Below are positions 2,854-28,238 of a stretch of DNA of 64,000 nucleotides, in pieces (within the stretch, counting starts at the first letter, position 1; every line of letters begins with the position of its first letter). The notes beneath the pieces are model-generated. The model saw only the letters and a list, made by a program, of their open reading frames with translations. It did not search any database and had not been told where the DNA came from. The translations under genes were made by a program, and so were the position numbers. The stretch lies in the IMG/VR virus record IMGVR_UViG_2740892441_000001, one strand, 5' to 3'. The DNA is from a virus. Its lineage: Duplodnaviria; Heunggongvirae; Uroviricota; Caudoviricetes.

Positions 2854-4110
2854 CTATCGAGAACCACCAAGAATAACACGGTTTTTGACTGGATACCTAC
2901 GATGTACTGGATAGCCCAATGCGTCTGCACTATGCTCAATGCCACCTGTCTTATCCATATCTCGTGTTCCAGGCTTGTAGATGACCTTTTCCAGTGAATC
3001 AATCAAATGCTTGCACTTCGGATCGATATACAGCCGGATATCTCCAGATGCGGTCATCAGCATTCGGTTAACAGCATTAACACGATCCGCAATTGGCGGG
3101 TGCTTTTTCGAATAATCGACACGTAAGAATCCCTTCTCTTTGAATATGTCTACGTCAGACTCCCCGCGAGCATGTTGGCGATAAGCACCTGCCGGATCTG
3201 GAAATACCGTTATCTGTGATTTCCAGCGCCAGAAGCGCCTCTCAAGCTCATCACAAACCTCTGCCGTGTTAGAGGAAAAGAGCACCAATTCATCAATTGC
3301 CCATAGCTCACCATTTGGCTGAGGTTGCAAAATTACGGAAGACATCGGGTCAATGTTGAAGTCCTGTCCTACCCATATAGGCAACCGAGGGTTGAACTGA
3401 AGCGGTTTAACATGCACGTTTCGATCGAACGGGTAGTAAACGCGCCCGGACATATTTTCAAAGCTGGCCAGGTACTCCTGAGCGAACGATTTAGGGTCCA
3501 TATCGTTCTTAGCAGCTTCAATTTCCGCCGTAGGCACAAACGGCGAATCAGCAGTTACAAACTGCCAGCTCTTCCACTGTCCCTTTCTTTGCAGCTCTAC
3601 GTTCTGGCCTATAGTCCACAGTTTGTGAAATTCCGAGAAGCCTTTTGGCGTACCAATGATCAGTGCACCGCCGCGTGTCGATGAAAGAGTAGGTCGTAAC
3701 ACCTTGTACCAGGTGTCAGCCTTCATATCCTGAAATTCATCAAGCACTACAAAATGCAACGCTACGCCGCGCAGAGTGTCAGGTTTATCAGCACCTTTGA
3801 GGGCGATCTCCGAACCGTTCTTCAACACGATTGTCATCGTGGTGTCGTTCTTTTTCCTAACCCACTTACGGGGCAGAACTTCCTGTAGATCGTCCCACAA
3901 AATCTGGCGAGCCATCTGGTAAGTAGGAGCGACATACCAGACCCTTTGCTTTTTTTCCTTTGCCGCCGCACGAATAATAGTGGAGATCGACAACCGGGAT
4001 TTTCCCCAGCGTCGACCAGCACAAACAACTTTAAATCGATGCGGAGACTGGAAGACTTTCATCTGTCCAGAATGCAGTTGCACAAGACTGAGCGAGGACG
4101 GGATTGCCAT
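2854..4110 (-). CDS. terL: Terminase large subunit
   Basis: 418 aa; Walker A-like VVCAGRRWGKS, Walker B-like HFVVLDEFQD, C-terminal nuclease-like region with conserved acidic residues. Confidence 0.9.
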   Translation of the reverse strand: MAIPSSLSLVQLHSGQMKVFQSPHRFKVVCAGRRWGKSRLSISTIIRAAAKEKKQRVWYVAPTYQMARQILWDDLQEVLPRKWVRKKNDTTMTIVLKNGSEIALKGADKPDTLRGVALHFVVLDEFQDMKADTWYKVLRPTLSSTRGGALIIGTPKGFSEFHKLWTIGQNVELQRKGQWKSWQFVTADSPFVPTAEIEAAKNDMDPKSFAQEYLASFENMSGRVYYPFDRNVHVKPLQFNPRLPIWVGQDFNIDPMSSVILQPQPNGELWAIDELVLFSSNTAEVCDELERRFWRWKSQITVFPDPAGAYRQHARGESDVDIFKEKGFLRVDYSKKHPPIADRVNAVNRMLMTASGDIRLYIDPKCKHLIDSLEKVIYKPGTRDMDKTGGIEHSADALGYPVHRRYPVKNRVILGGSR

Positions 4111-16508: not shown

Positions 16509-16820
16509 TCAGGCTATTGCCATCACTGATGCTCTCTGAATCTCTTGCTGGGCCACGCGGTTAACTTCCATCAAAGCCAGTTCGAGCTGATGTTCCGGCC
16601 ACATTCTTTGAAACGCCATCCAGCCTTTTCCACGCTGGCGGCGAACATTCATTACATAACGAGTAAAGGTGTTTTTATCGAAAGACACCGCTGTTTCACG
16701 GAACAGACGAATAGAGGTTCCATTGGCAACGATGTCCAGCAAAGTTAATTGAGCAACCAGCGCAGGCTTCTCTTTTCTCTTCTGGTCTTTGTCCAGACCA
16801 AGAACCAATGATTTTTTCAT
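16509..16820 (-). CDS. Hypothetical protein
   Basis: Start set at MKKSLVLG (RBS GGAG) downstream of conserved promoter element at 16833-16865. Confidence 0.5.
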   Translation of the reverse strand: MKKSLVLGLDKDQKRKEKPALVAQLTLLDIVANGTSIRLFRETAVSFDKNTFTRYVMNVRRQRGKGWMAFQRMWPEHQLELALMEVNRVAQQEIQRASVMAIA

Positions 16821-20271: not shown

Positions 20272-22305
20272 TTACTTAACCTGGTGGCCAGGTTTAGCAC
20301 CAGCATCCGGGCTTAACAGGAAGATGTCTTTCCCGCCGGGGCCAGCAGCCATCACCATGCCTTCGGAGATACCGAAACGCATTTTACGCGGAGCCAGGTT
20401 AGCCACCATAATGGTGTGACGGCCAATCAGTGCCTGTGGGTCTGGATAAGCGGAACGGATGCCTGAGAAGACATTGCGTTTTTCACCGCCGAGATCCAGC
20501 GTCAGGCGCAGCAGTTTGTCAGAACCTTCAACAAAGTCTGCGTTTTCGATCAGCGCCACGCGCAGGTCAACTTTGGCAAAGTCGTCAAAGGTGATGGTTT
20601 CCTGAATCGGGTCGTCTGCCAGCGGGCCAGTAACTGGCGCGGCAGTAGCTTTCACTTCTTCTTTAGACGCTTCCACCAATGCTTCCACCTGTTTCATGTC
20701 GATACGGTTATACAGTGCTTTGAACGGATTCACTTTATGGCCCAGCAGCGGTTGCTGGATACCATCCCAGGTCAGTTCTGTATTCAGGAATGCTTCTGCA
20801 CGTTCAGTCAGTTTCGGCAGTACCGGCTTCAGGTACGTCATCAGCACGCGGAACAGGTTAATGCCCATAGAGCAAATCGCCTGCAGATCGGCATCGCGTC
20901 CTTCCTGCTTCGCCACCACCCACGGAGCCTGTTCATCGACATAGCGGTTAGCCAGGTCAGCCAATGCCATGATTTCACGGATAGCTTTACCAAATTCGCG
21001 GCTTTCCCATGCTTCGCCAATCACTTCAGCGGCATCAGTAAAGGTTTTGTACAGTTGCGAGTCAGCCAGTTCGCTTGCCAGCACGCCGTCAAAACGCTTG
21101 TTGATAAAGCCTGCATTACGGGAGGCCAGGTTAACCACTTTGTTCACGATATCGGCATTCACGCGCTGAACGAAATCCTCCAGGTTGAGATCGATATCAT
21201 CAATGCGCGAAGAGAGTTTCGCAGTGTAGTAGTAACGCAGGCTGTCGGCGTCAAAATGATTCATCCAGGTGCTGGCTTTAATAAAGGTGCCGCGAGACTT
21301 GGACATCTTCGCGCCGTTCACCGTCACATAGCCGTGAACAAACAGGTTGGTCGGCTTGCGGAAGTTGCTGCCTTCCAGCATGGCAGGCCAGAACAGGCTG
21401 TGGAAGTAAACGATATCTTTACCGATGAAGTGGTACAGCTCGGCGGTGGAGTCTTTCTTCCAGTATTCATCGAAGCTGGTAGTGTCGCCGCGCTTGTCGC
21501 ACAGATTCTTGAAGGAACCCATGTAGCCAATCGGTGCGTCCAGCCAGACGTAGAAATATTTACCCGGCGCGTTCGGAATTTCAAAACCGAAGTAAGGTGC
21601 GTCGCGGGAGATATCCCACTGTTGCAGACCAGATTCAAACCACTCCTGCATTTTGTTTGCCACCTGCTCCTGCAACGCACCGCTGCGGGTCCATGCCTGC
21701 AACATTTCGCTGAAAGAGGGCAGATCAAAGAAGAAGTGTTCAGAATCACGCATTACCGGCGTAGCGCCAGAAACTACCGATTTCGGCTCAATCAGTTCAG
21801 TCGGGCTGTAGGTCGCGCCGCAAACTTCACAGTTATCGCCGTATTGATCTGGCGCTTTACATTTCGGACAGGTGCCTTTCACAAAACGATCCGGCAGGAA
21901 CATGCCTTTTTCCGGGTCGTACAACTGAGAGATAGTGCGGTTTTTAATAAAACCGTTCTCTTTCAGGCGAGTATAGATAAGCTCAGACAGCTGGCGGTTC
22001 TCTTCGCTGTGCGTCGAGTGATAGTTGTCATAGCTGATGTTAAAGCCTGCGAAATCAGTCTGGTGTTCCTGGCTCATTTCGCCAATCATCTGTTCCGGTG
22101 TGATACCAAGCTGCTGTGCTTTCAGCATGATCGGCGTACCGTGGGCATCGTCGGCGCAGATGAAGTTGACCTCGTGGCCGCGCATTCGCTGGTAACGGAC
22201 CCAGACATCAGCCTGGATGTGCTCCAGCATATGGCCGAGGTGGATTGAGCCGTTAGCGTACGGCAGCGCGCACGTCACCAGAATTTTCTTCGCGACTTGG
22301 GTCAT
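20272..22305 (-). CDS. metG: Methionine--tRNA ligase (methionyl-tRNA synthetase), enterobacterial type
   Basis: 677 aa from [26 protein letters not shown]... with HIGH (HLGH) and KMSKS motifs; recalled as near-identical to E. coli MetG; start reassigned to 22305. Confidence 0.97.
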
Positions 22306-22462
22306 AGTAGGCATTACTTCTTTGTAGTGAAAAGGGGCTTGATAGTAACAAAATGGCCTTATGTCTGCCATGTGATAACAGCATTTCTCATAAATGATTA
22401 AATGTCGTAGCTGGAGTACACTACAAGGCGACAATTGCGCAAATTAAAATAAAGGAGACGGG

Positions 22463-23563
22463 ATGAGCGAGTCCAAATCGCCGGATGCCCTGAGAGCAAT
22501 GGTAGCCGGTACGCTGGCTAATTTTCAGCACCCAACCCTGAAGCACAACCTGACTACGCTTAAAGCGTTACACCATGTTGCGTTGATGGATGACACACTG
22601 CATGTCGAACTAATCATGCCTTTCGTGTGGAATAAGCCTTTTGAAGACCTGAAAGAGCAATGTAGTGGTGATCTGCTCCGTATCACTGGCGCAAAGGCTA
22701 TCGACTGGAAGCTGTCGTACAACATTGCCACGCTTAAGCGCGTCAAAAACCAACCAGGCATTAATGGCGTTAAGAACATCATCGCCGTCAGCTCAGGCAA
22801 GGGCGGTGTAGGCAAATCGTCCACAGCAGTAAACTTGGCACTGGCGTTGGCTGCTGAAGGTGCGAAAGTTGGTATTTTGGATGCCGATATCTACGGTCCA
22901 TCAATTCCAACCATGCTGGGTGCGGAAAACCAACGTCCAACCTCACCGGACGGTACTCACATGGCACCTATCATGTCTCATGGCCTGGCAACCAACTCTA
23001 TTGGTTATCTGGTCACCGACGACAATGCAATGGTGTGGCGTGGACCGATGGCCAGCAAGGCGTTAATGCAGATGTTGCAGGAAACTCTATGGCCTGATCT
23101 GGACTATCTCGTTCTCGATATGCCGCCGGGCACTGGTGATATTCAATTGACGCTGGCGCAGAACATTCCTGTAACTGGTGCTGTTGTGGTAACTACGCCG
23201 CAAGATATCGCGCTGATCGATGCGAAGAAAGGCATTGTGATGTTCGAAAAAGTCGAAGTGCCGGTACTGGGTATCGTCGAAAACATGAGTGTGCATATTT
23301 GCAGTAACTGCGGTCATCACGAGCCAATTTTTGGCACCGGTGGCGCACAGAAGCTGGCCGAGAAATACAACACGCAGTTGTTAGGCCAAATGCCACTTCA
23401 TATCTCTCTTCGTGAAGATCTGGATAACGGAACACCAACCGTTATTAGTCGTCCAGATAGCGAATTTACGGCTATTTATCGTGACCTCGCAGATCGCGTT
23501 GCTGCCCAAATGTATTGGCAAGGTGAAGTAATACCTGGCGAAATCGCATTCCGCGCAGTGTGA
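22463..23563 (+). CDS. apbC: Iron-sulfur cluster carrier protein ApbC/Mrp (P-loop ATPase)
   Basis: 366 aa; deviant Walker A SGKGGVGKSS and CxxC motif (CSNCGH); divergent from metG with enterobacterial-type intergenic region. Confidence 0.95.
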   Translation: MSESKSPDALRAMVAGTLANFQHPTLKHNLTTLKALHHVALMDDTLHVELIMPFVWNKPFEDLKEQCSGDLLRITGAKAIDWKLSYNIATLKRVKNQPGINGVKNIIAVSSGKGGVGKSSTAVNLALALAAEGAKVGILDADIYGPSIPTMLGAENQRPTSPDGTHMAPIMSHGLATNSIGYLVTDDNAMVWRGPMASKALMQMLQETLWPDLDYLVLDMPPGTGDIQLTLAQNIPVTGAVVVTTPQDIALIDAKKGIVMFEKVEVPVLGIVENMSVHICSNCGHHEPIFGTGGAQKLAEKYNTQLLGQMPLHISLREDLDNGTPTVISRPDSEFTAIYRDLADRVAAQMYWQGEVIPGEIAFRAV

Positions 23564-23565
23564 TA

Positions 23566-23590
23566 AAAAGGTGGTGCAATGCACCACCTA
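23566..23590 (+). terminator. Hairpin GGTGGTGCAATGCACCACC after apbC
   Basis: Perfect inverted repeat immediately after apbC stop. Confidence 0.5.
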
Positions 23591-23600
23591 AACAGTTCTC

Positions 23601-23990
23601 CTACATCACAGGACAATCATCAAACTCGCCACTTCTTGCGTCGTTGATAATGTGAGTGATCACACCAAACACGGCATTGCTGCCCGTGCATCCATCATCA
23701 TCCTTTGGCAATGCTTCCTTCTTACCAGTTCTTAAATCCTCCAGATGCTGACGTGGATACTTCCGGTATCTTTTTACGCGATATTCCCCATCCAGAGCAC
23801 ATACAAGAAGAGATCCATCAACAGGAGTGAGTGAGGAATCGACCACCAGCAATGCACCCTGCAATATTCCCTCACGATGATGACTATCAGCCGCCCTCAT
23901 GAAGTAGGTCGCTGAAGGATGTCTAATTATCTGCTGATCAAGAGAAATACGGCTCTCTGCATAATCCGCCGCAGGAGATGGGAAGCCCAT
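23601..23990 (-). CDS. UmuD'-like S24 peptidase-fold protein (HumD-like, lacks UmuD N-terminal arm)
   Basis: 129 aa starting MGFPSPAADYAESR, matching E. coli UmuD from Gly25 onward; conserved Ser and Lys positions present; LexA box upstream. Confidence 0.85.
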   Translation of the reverse strand: MGFPSPAADYAESRISLDQQIIRHPSATYFMRAADSHHREGILQGALLVVDSSLTPVDGSLLVCALDGEYRVKRYRKYPRQHLEDLRTGKKEALPKDDDGCTGSNAVFGVITHIINDARSGEFDDCPVM

Positions 23991-24008
23991 AGCGTTTTCA
24001 CCTCAAAA

Positions 24009-24028
24009 TACTGTTTATATATACAGTA
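24009..24028. promoter_or_regulatory. LexA (SOS) box TACTGTTTATATATACAGTA
   Basis: Perfect CTGT-N8-ACAG palindrome 19-38 nt upstream of the UmuD'-like start, overlapping a TATACT -10-like hexamer. Confidence 0.8.
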
Positions 24029-24120
24029 TACATGAAAGAAACCCACTTAGTGCAACCGATCGAGACTCTTCACCAAACAAAAATATTTTTCTCAAATAAG
24101 AAAAGGCAGAAAACAAATTG

Positions 24121-24150
24121 TTTAAGGCCACTAGTTGTGGCCTTAATGGG
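24121..24150. terminator. Hairpin AAGGCCACTAGTTGTGGCCTT (terminator-like) after gene 24161-24685
   Basis: Stem-loop read directly; same family as 28300-28325. Confidence 0.4.
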
Positions 24151-24160
24151 GGAGGGGTGC

Positions 24161-24685
24161 TTATTGGCTATGGCTAAAAATCAAATGAGACACTTCATGT
24201 GGTTGTAGCTCGTCAAGATCCGGGGCCACAAAACCTTTTCCGAAAGACTTCACAAGTGATTCACCAGCCGCATCATTGTCACCTATTACGCGAAAGTCAT
24301 ACGGCAGCATTGCCAGTTGACGACGTAATCCTGCTGAGAAAGTCGAACCTAACAGCGCCCACGAATTTCCGCCCGCGTTGTGCACTGCTGCACTTTTAAA
24401 AATCGACTCAGTTATCCATATCGGTCCATCTTTTAAAGGAAGATAGGTTCCCCATAGTAGCTGTCTGCCGTGCGCTCGTGTGAAATACCGGGCCATCTTC
24501 GGATTGCTATGCTGCTTAGGAGCGCCTGGTCTGTATGTCTGATACCCGGCCAACATCCCATCAAACCTGTATAGAGGGAACGTAACAACTCCTTCGCTTT
24601 CATCGATCCACTGTCTATATGGATGCACATCATGGCGGTAGTTGCGAGTTAGCAAATGAGCTTCCAGCTTTCCAAATTTGGTCAT
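24161..24685 (-). CDS. TOPRIM-domain protein (primase-like fold)
   Basis: Start set at MTKFGKLEAH; segments ITESIFKSAAVHNAGGNSWALLG and VIGDNDAAGE resemble TOPRIM E...DxD motifs. Confidence 0.45.
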   Translation of the reverse strand: MTKFGKLEAHLLTRNYRHDVHPYRQWIDESEGVVTFPLYRFDGMLAGYQTYRPGAPKQHSNPKMARYFTRAHGRQLLWGTYLPLKDGPIWITESIFKSAAVHNAGGNSWALLGSTFSAGLRRQLAMLPYDFRVIGDNDAAGESLVKSFGKGFVAPDLDELQPHEVSHLIFSHSQ

Positions 24686-24698
24686 AACTTCGCATCCC

Positions 24699-25553
24699 TC
24701 ATAACACTTCCCATTTATCACCATATTTCTCCATAGCTCTTAGCCAGTAAACATGGCCACTAGGCATAGTGATGTGAGGCTCGCCAAACTCTTCTCCATG
24801 CACATCAAAGATGTCCCCAACAGAGAATTGGGGGATTTCTACGCCGTTTTCACCTATATGCGTAATTCGTATACGTTTCGGTTGAAATTGTCCACCTTTG
24901 AGCGAGTTGTTCACTGCTCTGGCAATTTTCTCCCGCAATTGCTGCGTTACGTGGTACTGAACCGCAATATCCCGCAACTCGTTCACCAGTTCTCTAATCT
25001 GGTGATCTTTAAGCTCATTATTTGGGTGATGGGCAACAACTCTGGTTAATTCACCCTTGTCTTTTGCTCTTACGTATGCAGCTCTTGTGCATTCGACCCA
25101 TGTATTACCGCCTACATTAACTTCGTAGATTAGGCTGGACTTATCTGTCAATTCGGAACAAATACGGGCCGTGGTCTGGCAACTAGAGCATTCGCAGTTA
25201 TCGCGGAAACCGTGGTCTACTGGCTGCGGTTTCACATCATCAACTTTTTCTACCCTATTGGAATTTAAATACTTCGAAGCCTTGCTATGCCAATCGCTGG
25301 TTTTAGGATCTTGTCCATCCATCAAACGCCAGGCTTCAGCGATTAACTCATAACTAGTGACTGTAGCTTCCTGCGCATCACCAATAAGTCGTGTAATCTC
25401 TCTTTCAAGCCGACCGCCTAGCTCTGTTTTAGTGCAATGTTCTGACCAATCGCCAGCCTCAAGCAGCGCGAGAATGCTTAAAATATCGTCCAATAGAACG
25501 GTAGTATTATCGACTTCCTTCTGAAACTCACCGGCTACTGATTTATGCATCAT
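24699..25553 (-). CDS. Hypothetical protein
   Basis: 284 aa ORF in operon with the TOPRIM gene; cysteine cluster CECSSC. Confidence 0.5.
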   Translation of the reverse strand: MMHKSVAGEFQKEVDNTTVLLDDILSILALLEAGDWSEHCTKTELGGRLEREITRLIGDAQEATVTSYELIAEAWRLMDGQDPKTSDWHSKASKYLNSNRVEKVDDVKPQPVDHGFRDNCECSSCQTTARICSELTDKSSLIYEVNVGGNTWVECTRAAYVRAKDKGELTRVVAHHPNNELKDHQIRELVNELRDIAVQYHVTQQLREKIARAVNNSLKGGQFQPKRIRITHIGENGVEIPQFSVGDIFDVHGEEFGEPHITMPSGHVYWLRAMEKYGDKWEVL

Positions 25554-25852
25554 TCGTCATCCTCATCCGAGTCATCCTCATCACAGGATGAGAGTAGTGG
25601 GTTAGTCATTCGCCCTACTTGAGTGGCGTAGCCACGCCGACAGAGATTGCGCAGCACACTGTATATTTCGAACATCTCGGTTCGTTCATCGCCAACATCA
25701 AGCTCAGATGCTATAGCGTGGCATTCAGTCGCGAGAGCCGATATTTTCTGAAATAACTCTGCTTTATTCACTCTTAGACTCCTGCGGAGGTTCTGGTAGC
25801 GGCATCCAGTGAGTTGCTTGCTCAATACCATTACCCGGCTTAATCGTTGCAT
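25550..25852 (-). CDS. Hypothetical protein with acidic C-terminal tail
   Basis: 100 aa ending CDEDDSDEDDE; start uncertain. Confidence 0.35.
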   Translation of the reverse strand: MQRLSRVMVLSKQLTGCRYQNLRRSLRVNKAELFQKISALATECHAIASELDVGDERTEMFEIYSVLRNLCRRGYATQVGRMTNPLLSSCDEDDSDEDDE

Positions 25853-26498
25853 CTCCGCGCCGAAAGGTGCTTCCGGTATAGCGTGCGGAGCATATTAGCG
25901 GTTCAACCAGAGAGCTATCGAAATTCACCGAAATAAGCACGTTCTGGCCCTTTTCAGGCATTCGCTCACTACAGCTTATCCAACCATCCGGAGTTACCGG
26001 ATTGTTGCCAGCCTCATACGCGACCCTTATCCAGTGCATAAGCATTTCAGTACTTACACATCCACAATCAACATCAATTTTGTCATGCTGCTGTTCCAGC
26101 CATTGCTCAAAAGTTAACTTGTAAGTTTGGCTTACAGGTTTGGCTTCCAGTTCTGCTATGTGATTTTTGGCTGATTCCAACTCAATCGACAATTTTTCCA
26201 ACTGCTCTTTATGATTTTTATATTCCTGATATGCGTGCCAAGACTGACCTTTGCGCACACTATCAGTGATATCAGCAACCTGCTCTGGTGTTAGCGTGGT
26301 CAGTGGCTGTGCTGGAAAAATCATCACTTGCCCGGCATCCCAATCAAAACCCGCCTGAATTGACTGAACCTCAACTGATGGTGTTGAACCGATGCGACCA
26401 GGCGAATGAACAACGATCGTTACATCCATATCGCGACGATGGCTGTGGTTGTTGGACAAAATACGATTCACCGACTCAGAAAATTTGGAAAATTTCAT
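25764..26498 (-). CDS. Hypothetical phage protein (DUF551-like C-terminus)
   Basis: Start set at MKFSKF; C-terminal WMPLPEPP segment typical of a common phage domain of unknown function. Confidence 0.5.
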
Positions 26499-26821
26499 GC
26501 TGACCCCTCTTTCTCTCCCCGGATAATTCTGTTGCACACATCCACACACTCGTCGCAGATGAAAACGGCGTCCCCAGCAATTAACTTTTTGACGGCGTAC
26601 TGGGATTTGTTGCAGAAGCTGCAACAAAGTGTTCGCCTGGCTGATAAGGATGGAGCGCCAGATGTCAGCCGCTCCATATCGTTCTTGCGACGCAATATCA
26701 CACGGCTGAACTCAACCAGTTTCTCCGGGGATATCTCCTCCTCCTCCGTAGCGAGCGTCTCTAGTCGTTCGAGTATGTGGAAGGCTTTTTCCTGGGTAAT
26801 TGCAGAATGCGATGTGGTCAT
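26495..26821 (-). CDS. Small protein with ClpX-type C4 zinc finger
   Basis: C-terminal [31 protein letters not shown] closely matches the ClpX N-terminal zinc-binding domain. Confidence 0.55.
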
Positions 26822-26822
26822 C

Positions 26823-27434
26823 TCACTCTCCTTTGATGCGAATGCCAGGGGCGCGTGGCACATTAACTTCCACGATGCGCACTGTTGGTTTGTACATCTC
26901 AATCGCTGTCAGCCAGTCAGCTCCTGTCATGCGCTTTTCCGCATCGCCATTAGTCCACTGAACCGGTACACCAATAGCCTTCATCGCGATTTCTATTTCC
27001 CCGGCAATGGCGCTTTTTCCGCAACCAGTAAAACCAGATACAACGACCAGAACTTCACCTTTGGCTGGTTTTATTTCCCGTGCTTCCAGTTCTGCAATGC
27101 GCTTACTTCCATCCGAGATAACGCCCTCGTAATACTCACGCTGCTCGTTGAGTTTTGATTTTGCCAACTCCAGTTGTTTTGTTAGTTCTGCAATACGACA
27201 AACATCGTTGATACGCGTTTCCTCTAATGCGTTGCTCTCATCCAGTAGCGCCAGCACGGTTTCTGGTCCGGCCAGAAATTTGAAGGCGTTGAGGGCATCA
27301 ATATCAACACCGCTATCTTTAAGTTCCTGTTCGCTTATCAGATCATCATCAACTGGCAACATTAACAGGCGTTCCATTGCCGGAATTGCACGCTCTGCCG
27401 CCTCACGCAGTGCCTGATAGTCAATCTTGCTCAC
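26823..27434 (-). CDS. Hypothetical protein (Ead/Ea22-like coiled-coil protein)
   Basis: 203 aa; coiled-coil N-terminus, resembles lambdoid ea22-type early proteins by composition. Confidence 0.45.
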
Positions 27435-27874
27435 TGGATGACTCCTTTACGAAGCAGTTCAGCAATACTTACGCATATCTCTGCGCCTCTAATCAGCCCC
27501 GGAACGTTCTTGTTTGGCCCAACTTCACCATCAACAAAATCAATCATCGCGTTACGAGCCATATCCACGCCCTGCGCACGTACTTCAGCCAGAAAAGCAT
27601 CGGTAGCTGGAGTTTCGCTGTGGTGCAGGGCATCGTTGATAATCATTGCAGCAACTCCGGCCTGCCCTGCATCCGTGACCGACACATGCTCAAGAGTTAC
27701 GGCCATTGCGTGTTTCAGCCCAGCGTTCTCTGCCACCAGCGCAGCGAGATTAGTCTCAAGCTCTGAAATTCGGCACGTGGCATCAATATTTGTGTCCTCC
27801 AGCCGCTTAATTTCATCCAGTAGTGCCAGCACATCCTGCGGATGCTCTTCGACCTCTTCAAATTCTTCTTCCAT
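27431..27874 (-). CDS. Hypothetical protein (Ead/Ea22-like)
   Basis: 147 aa acidic coiled-coil N-terminus; start overlaps upstream stop. Confidence 0.45.
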   Translation of the reverse strand: MEEEFEEVEEHPQDVLALLDEIKRLEDTNIDATCRISELETNLAALVAENAGLKHAMAVTLEHVSVTDAGQAGVAAMIINDALHHSETPATDAFLAEVRAQGVDMARNAMIDFVDGEVGPNKNVPGLIRGAEICVSIAELLRKGVIQ

Positions 27875-27908
27875 ATATCACCTCAAATAAGTGGTTTGCT
27901 GCCTGAGC

Positions 27909-28238
27909 TTATTTTGCTTTGAGCAACTTCATCGCTTCGTCAATGCGTGATTGTGTCCCTGCGTTTGGCTCCACTACCTGAAGGCGGCGGGCATCTTCAA
28001 GAAGTTTCGCAATCATTTCTTTAAGTACTTCGTTATCGTTATTCATGAGCGTGCTCCTGTCAGTTAGCTTTGAGTAACGCGCCGCGATTTGCATCTCCAC
28101 GGTTCCGTCATGCAATGCAACAATCTCTCGGACAGCAACCGGGTGGTTGATGTAGTCTTCGCCGGTATATTTTCTTTTCTGACCAACGCCACCATGAGCG
28201 CCAGCGGCGAACATATGAGCTTCGGAAATACTAGACAT
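27909..28238 (-). CDS. HD-domain protein resembling the RelA/SpoT (p)ppGpp-hydrolase N-terminal region
   Basis: AHMFAAGAHGGVGQKRKYTGEDYINHPVAV...ALHDG matches the SpoT/Mesh1 hydrolase motif including the HD dyad; only 109 aa so possibly truncated. Confidence 0.5.
   Translation of the reverse strand: MSSISEAHMFAAGAHGGVGQKRKYTGEDYINHPVAVREIVALHDGTVEMQIAARYSKLTDRSTLMNNDNEVLKEMIAKLLEDARRLQVVEPNAGTQSRIDEAMKLLKAK

Follow-up and report, generated by a model that had tools for sequence, protein, structure and literature searches.

A humD orthologue on an SSU5-like phage-plasmid of Escherichia coli encodes a pre-truncated UmuD'-type protein downstream of a putative LexA operator

Bacteriophage P1 carries humD (P1_gp103, YP_006569.1), and its product has been described as a functional homologue of UmuD' that facilitates SOS mutagenesis (McLenigan et al. 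1999, J Bacteriol 181:7005). Functional replacement of UmuD' by P1 HumD, with respect to mutagenesis, dimerisation and binding of both UmuC and the RecA filament, is known from the literature (PMC7092418; McLenigan et al. 1999). The P1 record annotates a LexA site 19 nt 5' of humD, which has 129 codons; the neighbours of the gene are lxr, hot and phd-doc, no cognate umuC is present and the carrier is an extrachromosomal prophage. The original study of P1 HumD reportedly included complementation as well as binding of UmuC and of RecA, and the protein is said to be poorly expressed in vivo. Stand-alone, pre-truncated genes of this type also occur in N15, phiKO2 and several lambdoid and P22-like prophages, with the same C-terminal tail and with one or more LexA boxes upstream. 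The mucAB, impCAB, rumAB and samAB operons of plasmids and ICEs resemble them in being LexA-controlled, mobile-element-borne sources of accessory subunits for Y-family polymerases. These operons encode a full-length, cleavable UmuD-type protein together with a UmuC-type polymerase of their own, whereas the locus analysed here encodes neither. MucA and similar proteins have an N-terminal arm.

We analysed a humD locus within a 64-kb stretch of viral DNA (64,000 nucleotides in full, IMG/VR record IMGVR_UViG_2740892441_000001), referred to here as the window, and the positions of its features are collected in Table 1. We found that the encoded protein begins M-GFPSPAADY and that this start coincides with Gly25 of E. 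coli UmuD. In a global alignment with UmuD of E. coli K-12 (NC_000913.3), the start lies opposite C24|GFPSPAADY, and G2 of the window protein falls opposite residue 25 of UmuD in PDB 8gmt_B (residues 25-136) and opposite residue 1 of UmuD' in 1umu. Judging from these alignments, the start of humD is precisely the point of RecA*-mediated UmuD cleavage. Since open reading frames were listed from the first ATG, GTG or TTG after a stop codon, we also read the DNA upstream of the start and found an in-frame TGA four codons 5' of the humD ATG (…TTT TGA GGT GAA AAC GCT ATG); therefore, no N-terminal extension or arm is possible. Indeed, 105 of 120 close homologues begin M-G[FY]PSPA. Longer homologues of 148-223 aa were considered as evidence for an arm and rejected: five of them keep G[FY]PSPA further in, four of these with the internal Met, and we regard these five as over-extended at the start codon, and the 148-aa forms are read through the SOS box.

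The window protein has the S24 fold in common with E. coli UmuD and UmuD' (PDB 1UMU, 1AY9, 1I4V and 8GMT), and Pfam PF00717 (Peptidase_S24) covers its residues 1-80. In the global alignment with K-12 UmuD, the two proteins are 43.5% identical across 115 aligned residues, and the residues aligned to UmuD' are well conserved throughout the core. Ser36 (in 'ADSH') and Lys73 (in 'RVKRY') are kept and are equivalent to Ser60 and Lys97, the catalytic dyad of UmuD. In contrast to E. coli UmuD, the window protein lacks the 24-residue arm and the Cys-Gly cleavage site, is not encoded in an operon with umuC, contains a four-residue insertion and is extended by ten residues at the C-terminus. Its C-terminal tail reads SGEFDDCPVM and is family-specific. 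The best sequence matches among solved structures are all E. coli UmuD or UmuD' (E = 7e-23 for 1umu). An AlphaFold2 model predicted from a 32-sequence family alignment is weak (pLDDT 61.7, both termini below 50), and the five significant PDB fold matches of this weak model are likewise all UmuD or UmuD'.

We next compared the window protein with models of the related families. The curated equivalog model NF051876.1 of NCBIfam, 'HumD family translesion DNA polymerase', matches residues 1-129 of 129 with 219.8 bits against a cut-off of 120, while E. coli UmuD scores 98.7 bits on the same model and falls below that cut-off. Conversely, the window protein reaches 87 bits on the UmuD subfamily model NF007621, which has a cut-off of 110, and 27 bits against a cut-off of 111 on the LexA model, where only the C-terminal domain is matched. 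Two other identities were considered and rejected: a repressor of the LexA or CI type, since the S24 domain begins at residue 1 and no N-terminal DNA-binding domain precedes it, and UmuD proper, given the sub-threshold score, the missing arm and the missing umuC. By every feature of the HumD family that can be assessed from sequence, the gene belongs to that family, and the locus is an ordinary humD orthologue that is already known and annotated.

Amino acid identity to the window protein is 100% for CYRAN_98 of Cyrano (annotated as 'LexA-like peptidase S24'), 98.4% for PhiR41_1, 91.5% for P1 HumD and 90.7% for D6, followed by the stand-alone 127-129 aa proteins of phiKO2 (gp23, 73%), N15 (gp26, 69%) and HK140, HK639, BTP1 and related prophages (60-66%). 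P1-type phages match the window between 23602 and 24058 at 84-86% nucleotide identity, which comprises the open reading frame and approximately 68 nt upstream and nothing more. The dN/dS ratio relative to P1 is 0.039 with a dS of 1.08, and therefore our data indicate strong purifying selection as well as an ancient split between P1-type and SSU5-type alleles. Across comparisons, dN/dS lies between 0.04 and 0.06 against P1 and D6 and between 0 and 0.11 within the SSU5-like group. The window locus and P1 humD thus have in common a length of 129 aa, the M-GFPSPAADY start, the EFDDCPV[MI] tail, a LexA box at the same distance from the ATG, the homologous upstream DNA, the lack of a cognate umuC and an extrachromosomal prophage as carrier. 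They differ in that the carrier here is SSU5-like rather than a P1-like phage-plasmid, in that the P1 neighbours are replaced by a hairpin on one side of humD and a convergent apbC-metG pair on the other, and in that a dS of approximately 1 reflects an old split and not a recent transfer.

We asked whether a cognate polymerase gene accompanies humD. In a tblastn search of the 64-kb window with E. coli UmuC, the best match had an E value of 4.4. SSU5-like relatives are absent from the 30 UmuC matches listed for the phage collection, and Escherichia is not among the ten commonest organism names of the UmuC matches there (the lowest of these ten has a count of 2). Furthermore, no umuC lies adjacent to humD in the N15-like or Citrobacter prophage loci. 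These results uphold a first-pass annotation of this DNA, which had described a 129-aa UmuD homologue that starts at the UmuD cleavage position and lacks umuC; the annotation had also proposed alignment to UmuD and P1 HumD as a check for a cleavable N-terminal arm, and the alignments reveal no arm. It had called the gene comparable to P1 humD, which understates the relationship, as the two are orthologues with 84% nucleotide identity that includes the upstream DNA.

Table 1. Positions of humD and of the signals around it in the window
Feature	Position	Strand	Description
humD coding sequence	23601..23990	minus	129 aa plus stop; naturally truncated UmuD'-type protein of the S24 fold
Shine-Dalgarno sequence GAGGTG	23999..24004	minus	8 nt 5' of the ATG; read from the DNA itself
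LexA operator (SOS box), putative, TACTGTATATATAAACAGTA	24028..24009	minus	ends 18 nt 5' of the humD ATG
Candidate promoter	24025..24055	minus	TTGCAC (24055..24050), 19-nt spacer, TATACT (24030..24025); weak, score 8/12
Hairpin after the upstream gene	24122..24146	minus	10-bp stem, weak T tail; fold -15.6 kcal/mol, z = -5.97
Predicted intrinsic terminator 3' of humD	23569..23589	minus	9-bp GC-rich stem, then TTTTTAT; fold -15.3 kcal/mol, z = -4.02

The box upstream of humD matches the 20-nt palindromic LexA consensus TACTGTATATATATACAGTA at 19 of 20 positions and has a perfect CTGT-N8-ACAG core. It is the sole match to the 20-mer in the 64-kb window at three or fewer mismatches, and none of 100 dinucleotide-preserving shuffles contained any match. 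The bare CTGT-N8-ACAG pattern was observed twice against 1.04 expected and is thus not above chance; we attribute the second occurrence, at 16691, to chance, as its spacer is GC-rich and the 20-mer search with up to three mismatches does not recover it. A single position distinguishes the humD box from the umuDC operator of E. coli K-12, TACTGTATATAAAAACAGTA, and the spacing between box and ATG is similar at the two genes. We aligned the 75-78 nt before the start codon for seven loci (the window, PhiR41_1, P1, D6, Cyrano, N15 and E. coli umuD) and found a single invariant block, TACTGTA…ACAGT, at a distance of 17-21 nt to the ATG. In Cyrano, the upstream DNA is unrelated past 24030, and the box is nevertheless retained (TACTGTATGTGTATACAGTA). 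Loci of the phiKO2 type have a perfect-core box 44 nt 5' of the start codon followed by a second, degenerate box-like repeat, and the phiKO2 record annotates the perfect-core box as a lexA binding site. In Citrobacter prophage loci, two near-boxes lie between dinI and the humD operon. Taken together, the comparative evidence for a functional LexA operator upstream of the window humD is strong, and by analogy with the umuDC operator and the annotated phage sites LexA would be expected to bind there.

The signals for transcription are less clear than the operator. A scan for sigma-70 promoters on the humD strand with spacers of 16-18 nt returned no match. With a longer spacer, we found a candidate promoter in which the -35 element TTGCAC matches the consensus at three of six positions and the last four bases of the -10 element TATACT are the first four of the box. 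The -35 element is kept as TTGCAC in P1, reads ATGCAC in PhiR41_1 and TTTCAC in D6, and is absent from Cyrano. A humD promoter overlapped by the LexA box is thus plausible, with its position presumably that of this candidate. Since no canonical sigma-70 promoter was found, humD expression may be weak, or it may depend in part on transcription that reads through the upstream hairpin, whose T tail is poor. The poor expression recounted for P1 HumD fits the weak candidate promoter. Downstream of the box, the GAGG of the Shine-Dalgarno sequence is conserved in P1, D6 and PhiR41_1.

We read the locus as a one-gene humD unit, and both sides of humD carry hairpins. The one after the upstream gene is probably a terminator and would set humD apart from the genes before it, and the one 3' of humD sits between the convergent humD and apbC and is conserved in PhiR41_1 and Cyrano. 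A tblastn search of the window with UmuD returned no second S24 protein or cleavable repressor. These observations refine what the first-pass annotation had said about regulation. Its 'perfect' SOS box is perfect in the core and, with one mismatch to the 20-nt consensus, was described slightly too generously. The promoter overlap it had proposed agrees with the four bases shared between box and candidate -10, although a sigma-70 match with a 16-18 nt spacer is missing. Its view that part of the element is under host SOS control is supported for humD alone, through the predicted operator; we found neither a further LexA box nor a further S24 protein in the window, and the hairpins bracket the gene.

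We found that the carrier, judged by its collinearity with known elements, is an SSU5-like phage-plasmid of E. coli (compare CMS-2020a, PhiR41_1 and Cyrano). Between 87 and 91% of window positions 1-50000 aligns collinearly to CMS-2020a and PhiR41_1 (108-109 kb) at 94.6-97.8% identity, and the coverage by Cyrano is 64% for one half of the same region and 87% for the other, at 96-98%. The SSU5 backbone is collinear with the window at 79-83% identity, and many non-mobilizable plasmids of E. coli and Shigella (approximately 107-115 kb) are collinear at 95-97%. SSU5 itself lacks approximately 13.7-28 kb of the window, and therefore humD lies in an accessory island. The island also carries a metG-apbC pair, a second copy of this pair that adjoins humD, along with lambdoid ea-type genes. 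A chromosomal prophage was first suspected because metG and mrp adjoin humD; this origin was rejected, as the window is collinear with SSU5-like phage-plasmids of approximately 108 kb that carry the same metG-apbC block. More broadly, we found humD-like DNA in 597 of 5426 complete E. coli genomes; 489 of its locations lie in plasmids and 138 in chromosomes.

We hypothesize that HumD joins the UmuC of the host as a pre-activated subunit under LexA control, and we give this reading a probability of roughly 0.85. In an undamaged cell, host LexA would occupy the operator, which is 18 nt away from the start codon and shares bases with the sole plausible -10 element, and humD would be off. Upon DNA damage, RecA* would stimulate the self-cleavage of LexA, and humD would be transcribed. 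The product would be made already in the UmuD' form, with no arm and nothing to cleave. A HumD dimer could then assemble with the chromosomally encoded UmuC of the host, RecA and ATP into a translesion polymerase of the pol V type. The slow RecA*-dependent conversion of UmuD to UmuD', which normally delays mutagenic bypass, would in this way be bypassed by HumD. The element would presumably benefit because its genome, as plasmid prophage or as phage, could be replicated when damaged. We propose dimerisation, the pairing with host UmuC and this benefit by analogy with what has been published on P1 HumD and about UmuD' and pol V of E. coli, and the 91.5% identity to P1 HumD suggests that the window protein could replace UmuD' as well. 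Experimental work on this allele, or on any other humD of the SSU5 type, did not turn up in our literature search.

Other roles for HumD are conceivable, and we weighed them against the evidence above. HumD might act mainly as a modulator that binds RecA* filaments, host UmuD (as heterodimers) or the alpha or beta subunit of Pol III and so tunes recombination, checkpoint timing or the coprotease activity of RecA* to the advantage of the plasmid prophage, with mutagenesis as a side effect. The neighbourhoods of several relatives point in this direction, as humD of phiKO2, N15-like contigs and Citrobacter prophages is divergent from a dinI homologue with which it shares LexA boxes, DinI being a modulator of RecA*, and P1 humD lies near hot, a homologue of Pol III theta. 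We searched the window for dinI, lxr, hot, phd and doc and found none of them; with dinI, lxr and hot missing here, such pairing is not a fixed feature of humD loci. Products of umuD are reported to bind Pol III alpha and beta (PMC3384344, PMC3799427), which would suit a modulator, yet the title of the P1 study presents HumD as a UmuD' homologue that facilitates SOS mutagenesis (McLenigan et al. 1999). In the family alignment, many members have Thr or Ala in place of the catalytic Ser (Thr in both N15 and phiKO2, a difference from the window protein) beside an invariant Lys73 and tail. Therefore, selection appears to act on surfaces other than the protease site, which favours a modulator. Against it, the residues aligned to UmuD' are well conserved across the whole core, and we consider a mainly modulatory role unlikely. 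It is far less probable still that humD is a decaying passenger without function in the element. Its location in an accessory island that is missing from SSU5 and its weak-looking promoter could be read that way, but the low dN/dS values within and beyond the SSU5-like group, the intact open reading frame with a good Shine-Dalgarno sequence and a terminator, the retention of the operator where the upstream DNA has been replaced and the frequency of humD-like DNA among complete E. coli genomes all argue against decay.

The C-terminal tail raises a further possibility. The conserved tail is absent from UmuD' and is not explained by a plain model of HumD as a UmuD' substitute. One could suppose that …GEFDDCPVM-COOH is a docking peptide similar to the tip of SSB, which would recruit HumD to proteins that bind the SSB C-terminus or compete for them, and that this is the reason why phages keep the gene on its own. 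Conservation of the tail is pronounced, and the last eight residues of the protein rank among the best conserved of the family. In 32 members with 67-94% identity to the window protein, E122, F123, D124 and P127 never vary, and D125, C126 and V128 show conservation of 90% or more. EFDDCPV[MI] or a close variant of it forms the C-terminus of approximately 100 of 120 homologues. In distant pre-truncated relatives, the final residues are GEFDDTPF, EFHDNLPF or EFDEIPCI, although shorter pre-truncated relatives without the tail also exist, and E. coli UmuD ends ten residues sooner. The low pLDDT predicted for the C-terminus would be in keeping with a flexible peptide. Aligned from their C-terminal ends, MDFDDDIPF of E. 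coli SSB and GEFDDCPVM are in register, but the likeness amounts to three identical and two similar residues in an acidic motif of 8-9 residues. Furthermore, the terminal Pro-Phe of SSB is critical, and in HumD it is replaced by Val-Met. Our literature search found no paper that mentions the HumD tail, and a degron, a contact with UmuC or a contact with RecA would account for its conservation equally well. We therefore regard an SSB-like role as slightly less likely than a modulatory one. If it were true, phage-borne UmuD' proteins would do more than supply pol V with a pre-activated subunit. We thus favour the reading in which HumD serves host UmuC as a pre-activated, LexA-controlled subunit.

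As a discovery, the locus carries little weight, since P1 HumD has been known since 1999, the family has an NCBI model of its own and the exact protein is present in public phage and plasmid records. Among the matches listed in our literature search, no paper pairs SSU5 with UmuD, and the SSU5-type humD allele seems to be undiscussed in the literature, yet it is an orthologue that databases annotate. Our comparison indicates that stand-alone, LexA-controlled genes for pre-activated UmuD' proteins occur on all three major groups of enterobacterial phage-plasmids (P1-like, N15-like and SSU5-like) as well as in integrated prophages. These genes are under strong purifying selection and keep their operator despite swapped flanks, as far as can be judged from the loci compared. 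These data support the idea that use of the host SOS response to increase or accelerate translesion synthesis is routine among temperate elements. With humD-like DNA in 597 complete E. coli genomes, this bears on stress-induced mutagenesis in clinical strains of the species. On E. coli plasmids, RefSeq labels the same gene either 'HumD family translesion DNA polymerase' or 'S24 family peptidase'. Some database entries name relatives 'LexA family transcriptional regulator', which we regard as a naming artefact.

We compared the residues of the protease site across the HumD family (alignment A1). The catalytic serine (Ser60 of UmuD; residue 36 of the window protein) is present in the window allele and in P1. 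N15, phiKO2, and many further HumD members have Thr at this position (A1; compared loci L004 and L005), and one aligned member, P0086, has Ala (A1). Lys73, the equivalent of UmuD Lys97, is invariant in A1. Variation among Ser, Thr, and Ala beside an invariant lysine fits a protease site without further need to cut. A C-terminal tail, …[SNT][GA]EFDDCPV[MI]-COOH (window 23601-23630), is strongly conserved across the HumD family and missing from UmuD; within it, E122, F123, D124, and P127 are invariant in A1. Distant HumD relatives end in GEFDDTPF or EFHDNLPF. The HumD tail resembles the SSB tip MDFDDDIPF when read from the C-terminus.

Among the public HumD entries, several with lengths of 148-223 aa (P0023, P0024, P0031, P0046, P0048, P0070, P0071, and P0082) are start-codon over-extensions, and some of these carry the name 'LexA family transcriptional regulator'. 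We regard these entries as annotation artefacts rather than arm-bearing forms: the 148-aa entries read through the SOS box and contain translated operator sequence (…IQYLYC…), and most over-extended entries keep an internal M-GFPSPA or near variant.

In the N15-like phage-plasmids, as also in the chromosomal prophages of Citrobacter, humD and a dinI homologue are divergently oriented, and LexA boxes lie in between. The Citrobacter loci contain an additional 80-aa ORF ahead of humD, and their LexA boxes are degenerate (CTGG…ACAG and CTGT…CCGG). None of the N15-like phage-plasmid or Citrobacter prophage loci examined has umuC next to humD. A search of the window for dinI found no copy.

Coordinates of the features in the accessory island and of the compared dinI-humD loci
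Feature	Position	Strand	Remark
metG	window 20272..22305	minus	part of block 20272-23563
apbC/mrp	window 22463..23563	plus	part of block 20272-23563
187-aa ORF	window 24161-24724	minus	directly upstream of humD; hypothetical in PhiR41_1 annotation
EaA-like, Ea22-like, and DUF551 genes	within window 24699-28000		upstream of humD
ORF, 135 aa as listed	window 26495-26902	minus	matches ClpX N-terminal C4 zinc finger
dinI-humD loci examined	L004 1881-1960; L012-L014 about 3925-4000; L009-L011 3439-4390		

We found that the EaA-like, Ea22-like, and DUF551 genes are 90-95% identical to their counterparts in hundreds of phages of the lambdoid and Stx-converting kinds, and that window 25001-50000 is matched by 530 phage records. 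Since the upstream genes are common to these phages at such identity, the accessory island is, as judged from sequence comparison, a lambdoid mosaic of early-region genes set into a backbone of the SSU5 type. SSU5-like relatives have two distinct flanks upstream of humD (window 24031-24146 versus L003, CP053388). The match of CP054387 and PhiR41_1 to the window continues through 24300, while that of Cyrano and CP053388 ends at 24030-24033. Because the latter matches break off right at the LexA box boundary, our data suggest a recombination junction at the humD operator. Cyrano has other DNA in place of the 187-aa ORF, which has no match in Pfam or NCBIfam.

On the other side of humD, the phage-plasmid carries a complete second copy of the host divergent pair metG-mrp(apbC). 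The nucleotide identity of this block to E. coli K-12 is 88.4% across 3298 nt, but its proteins are 98.4% (MetG, a methionyl-tRNA synthetase) and 94.0% (ApbC) identical to those of K-12, which points to an old copy under strong purifying selection rather than one recently captured from E. coli. CMS-2020a, PhiR41_1, Cyrano, and many ~109-kb plasmids have this block as well.

In the ORF that PGAP names 'ClpX C4-type zinc finger protein', the similarity to ClpX is confined to the N-terminal C4 zinc-finger domain, which the last ~43 residues match (90-132 by NCBIfam, versus ClpX 4-46), and the ORF is without the AAA+ module. PhiR41_1 has a homologue with an annotated length of 107 aa. The ClpX zinc-finger domain binds adaptors and UmuD, and ClpXP substrates include UmuD'; a functional link between this putative ClpX-type zinc-finger protein and humD, 2.5 kb apart, is thus conceivable.
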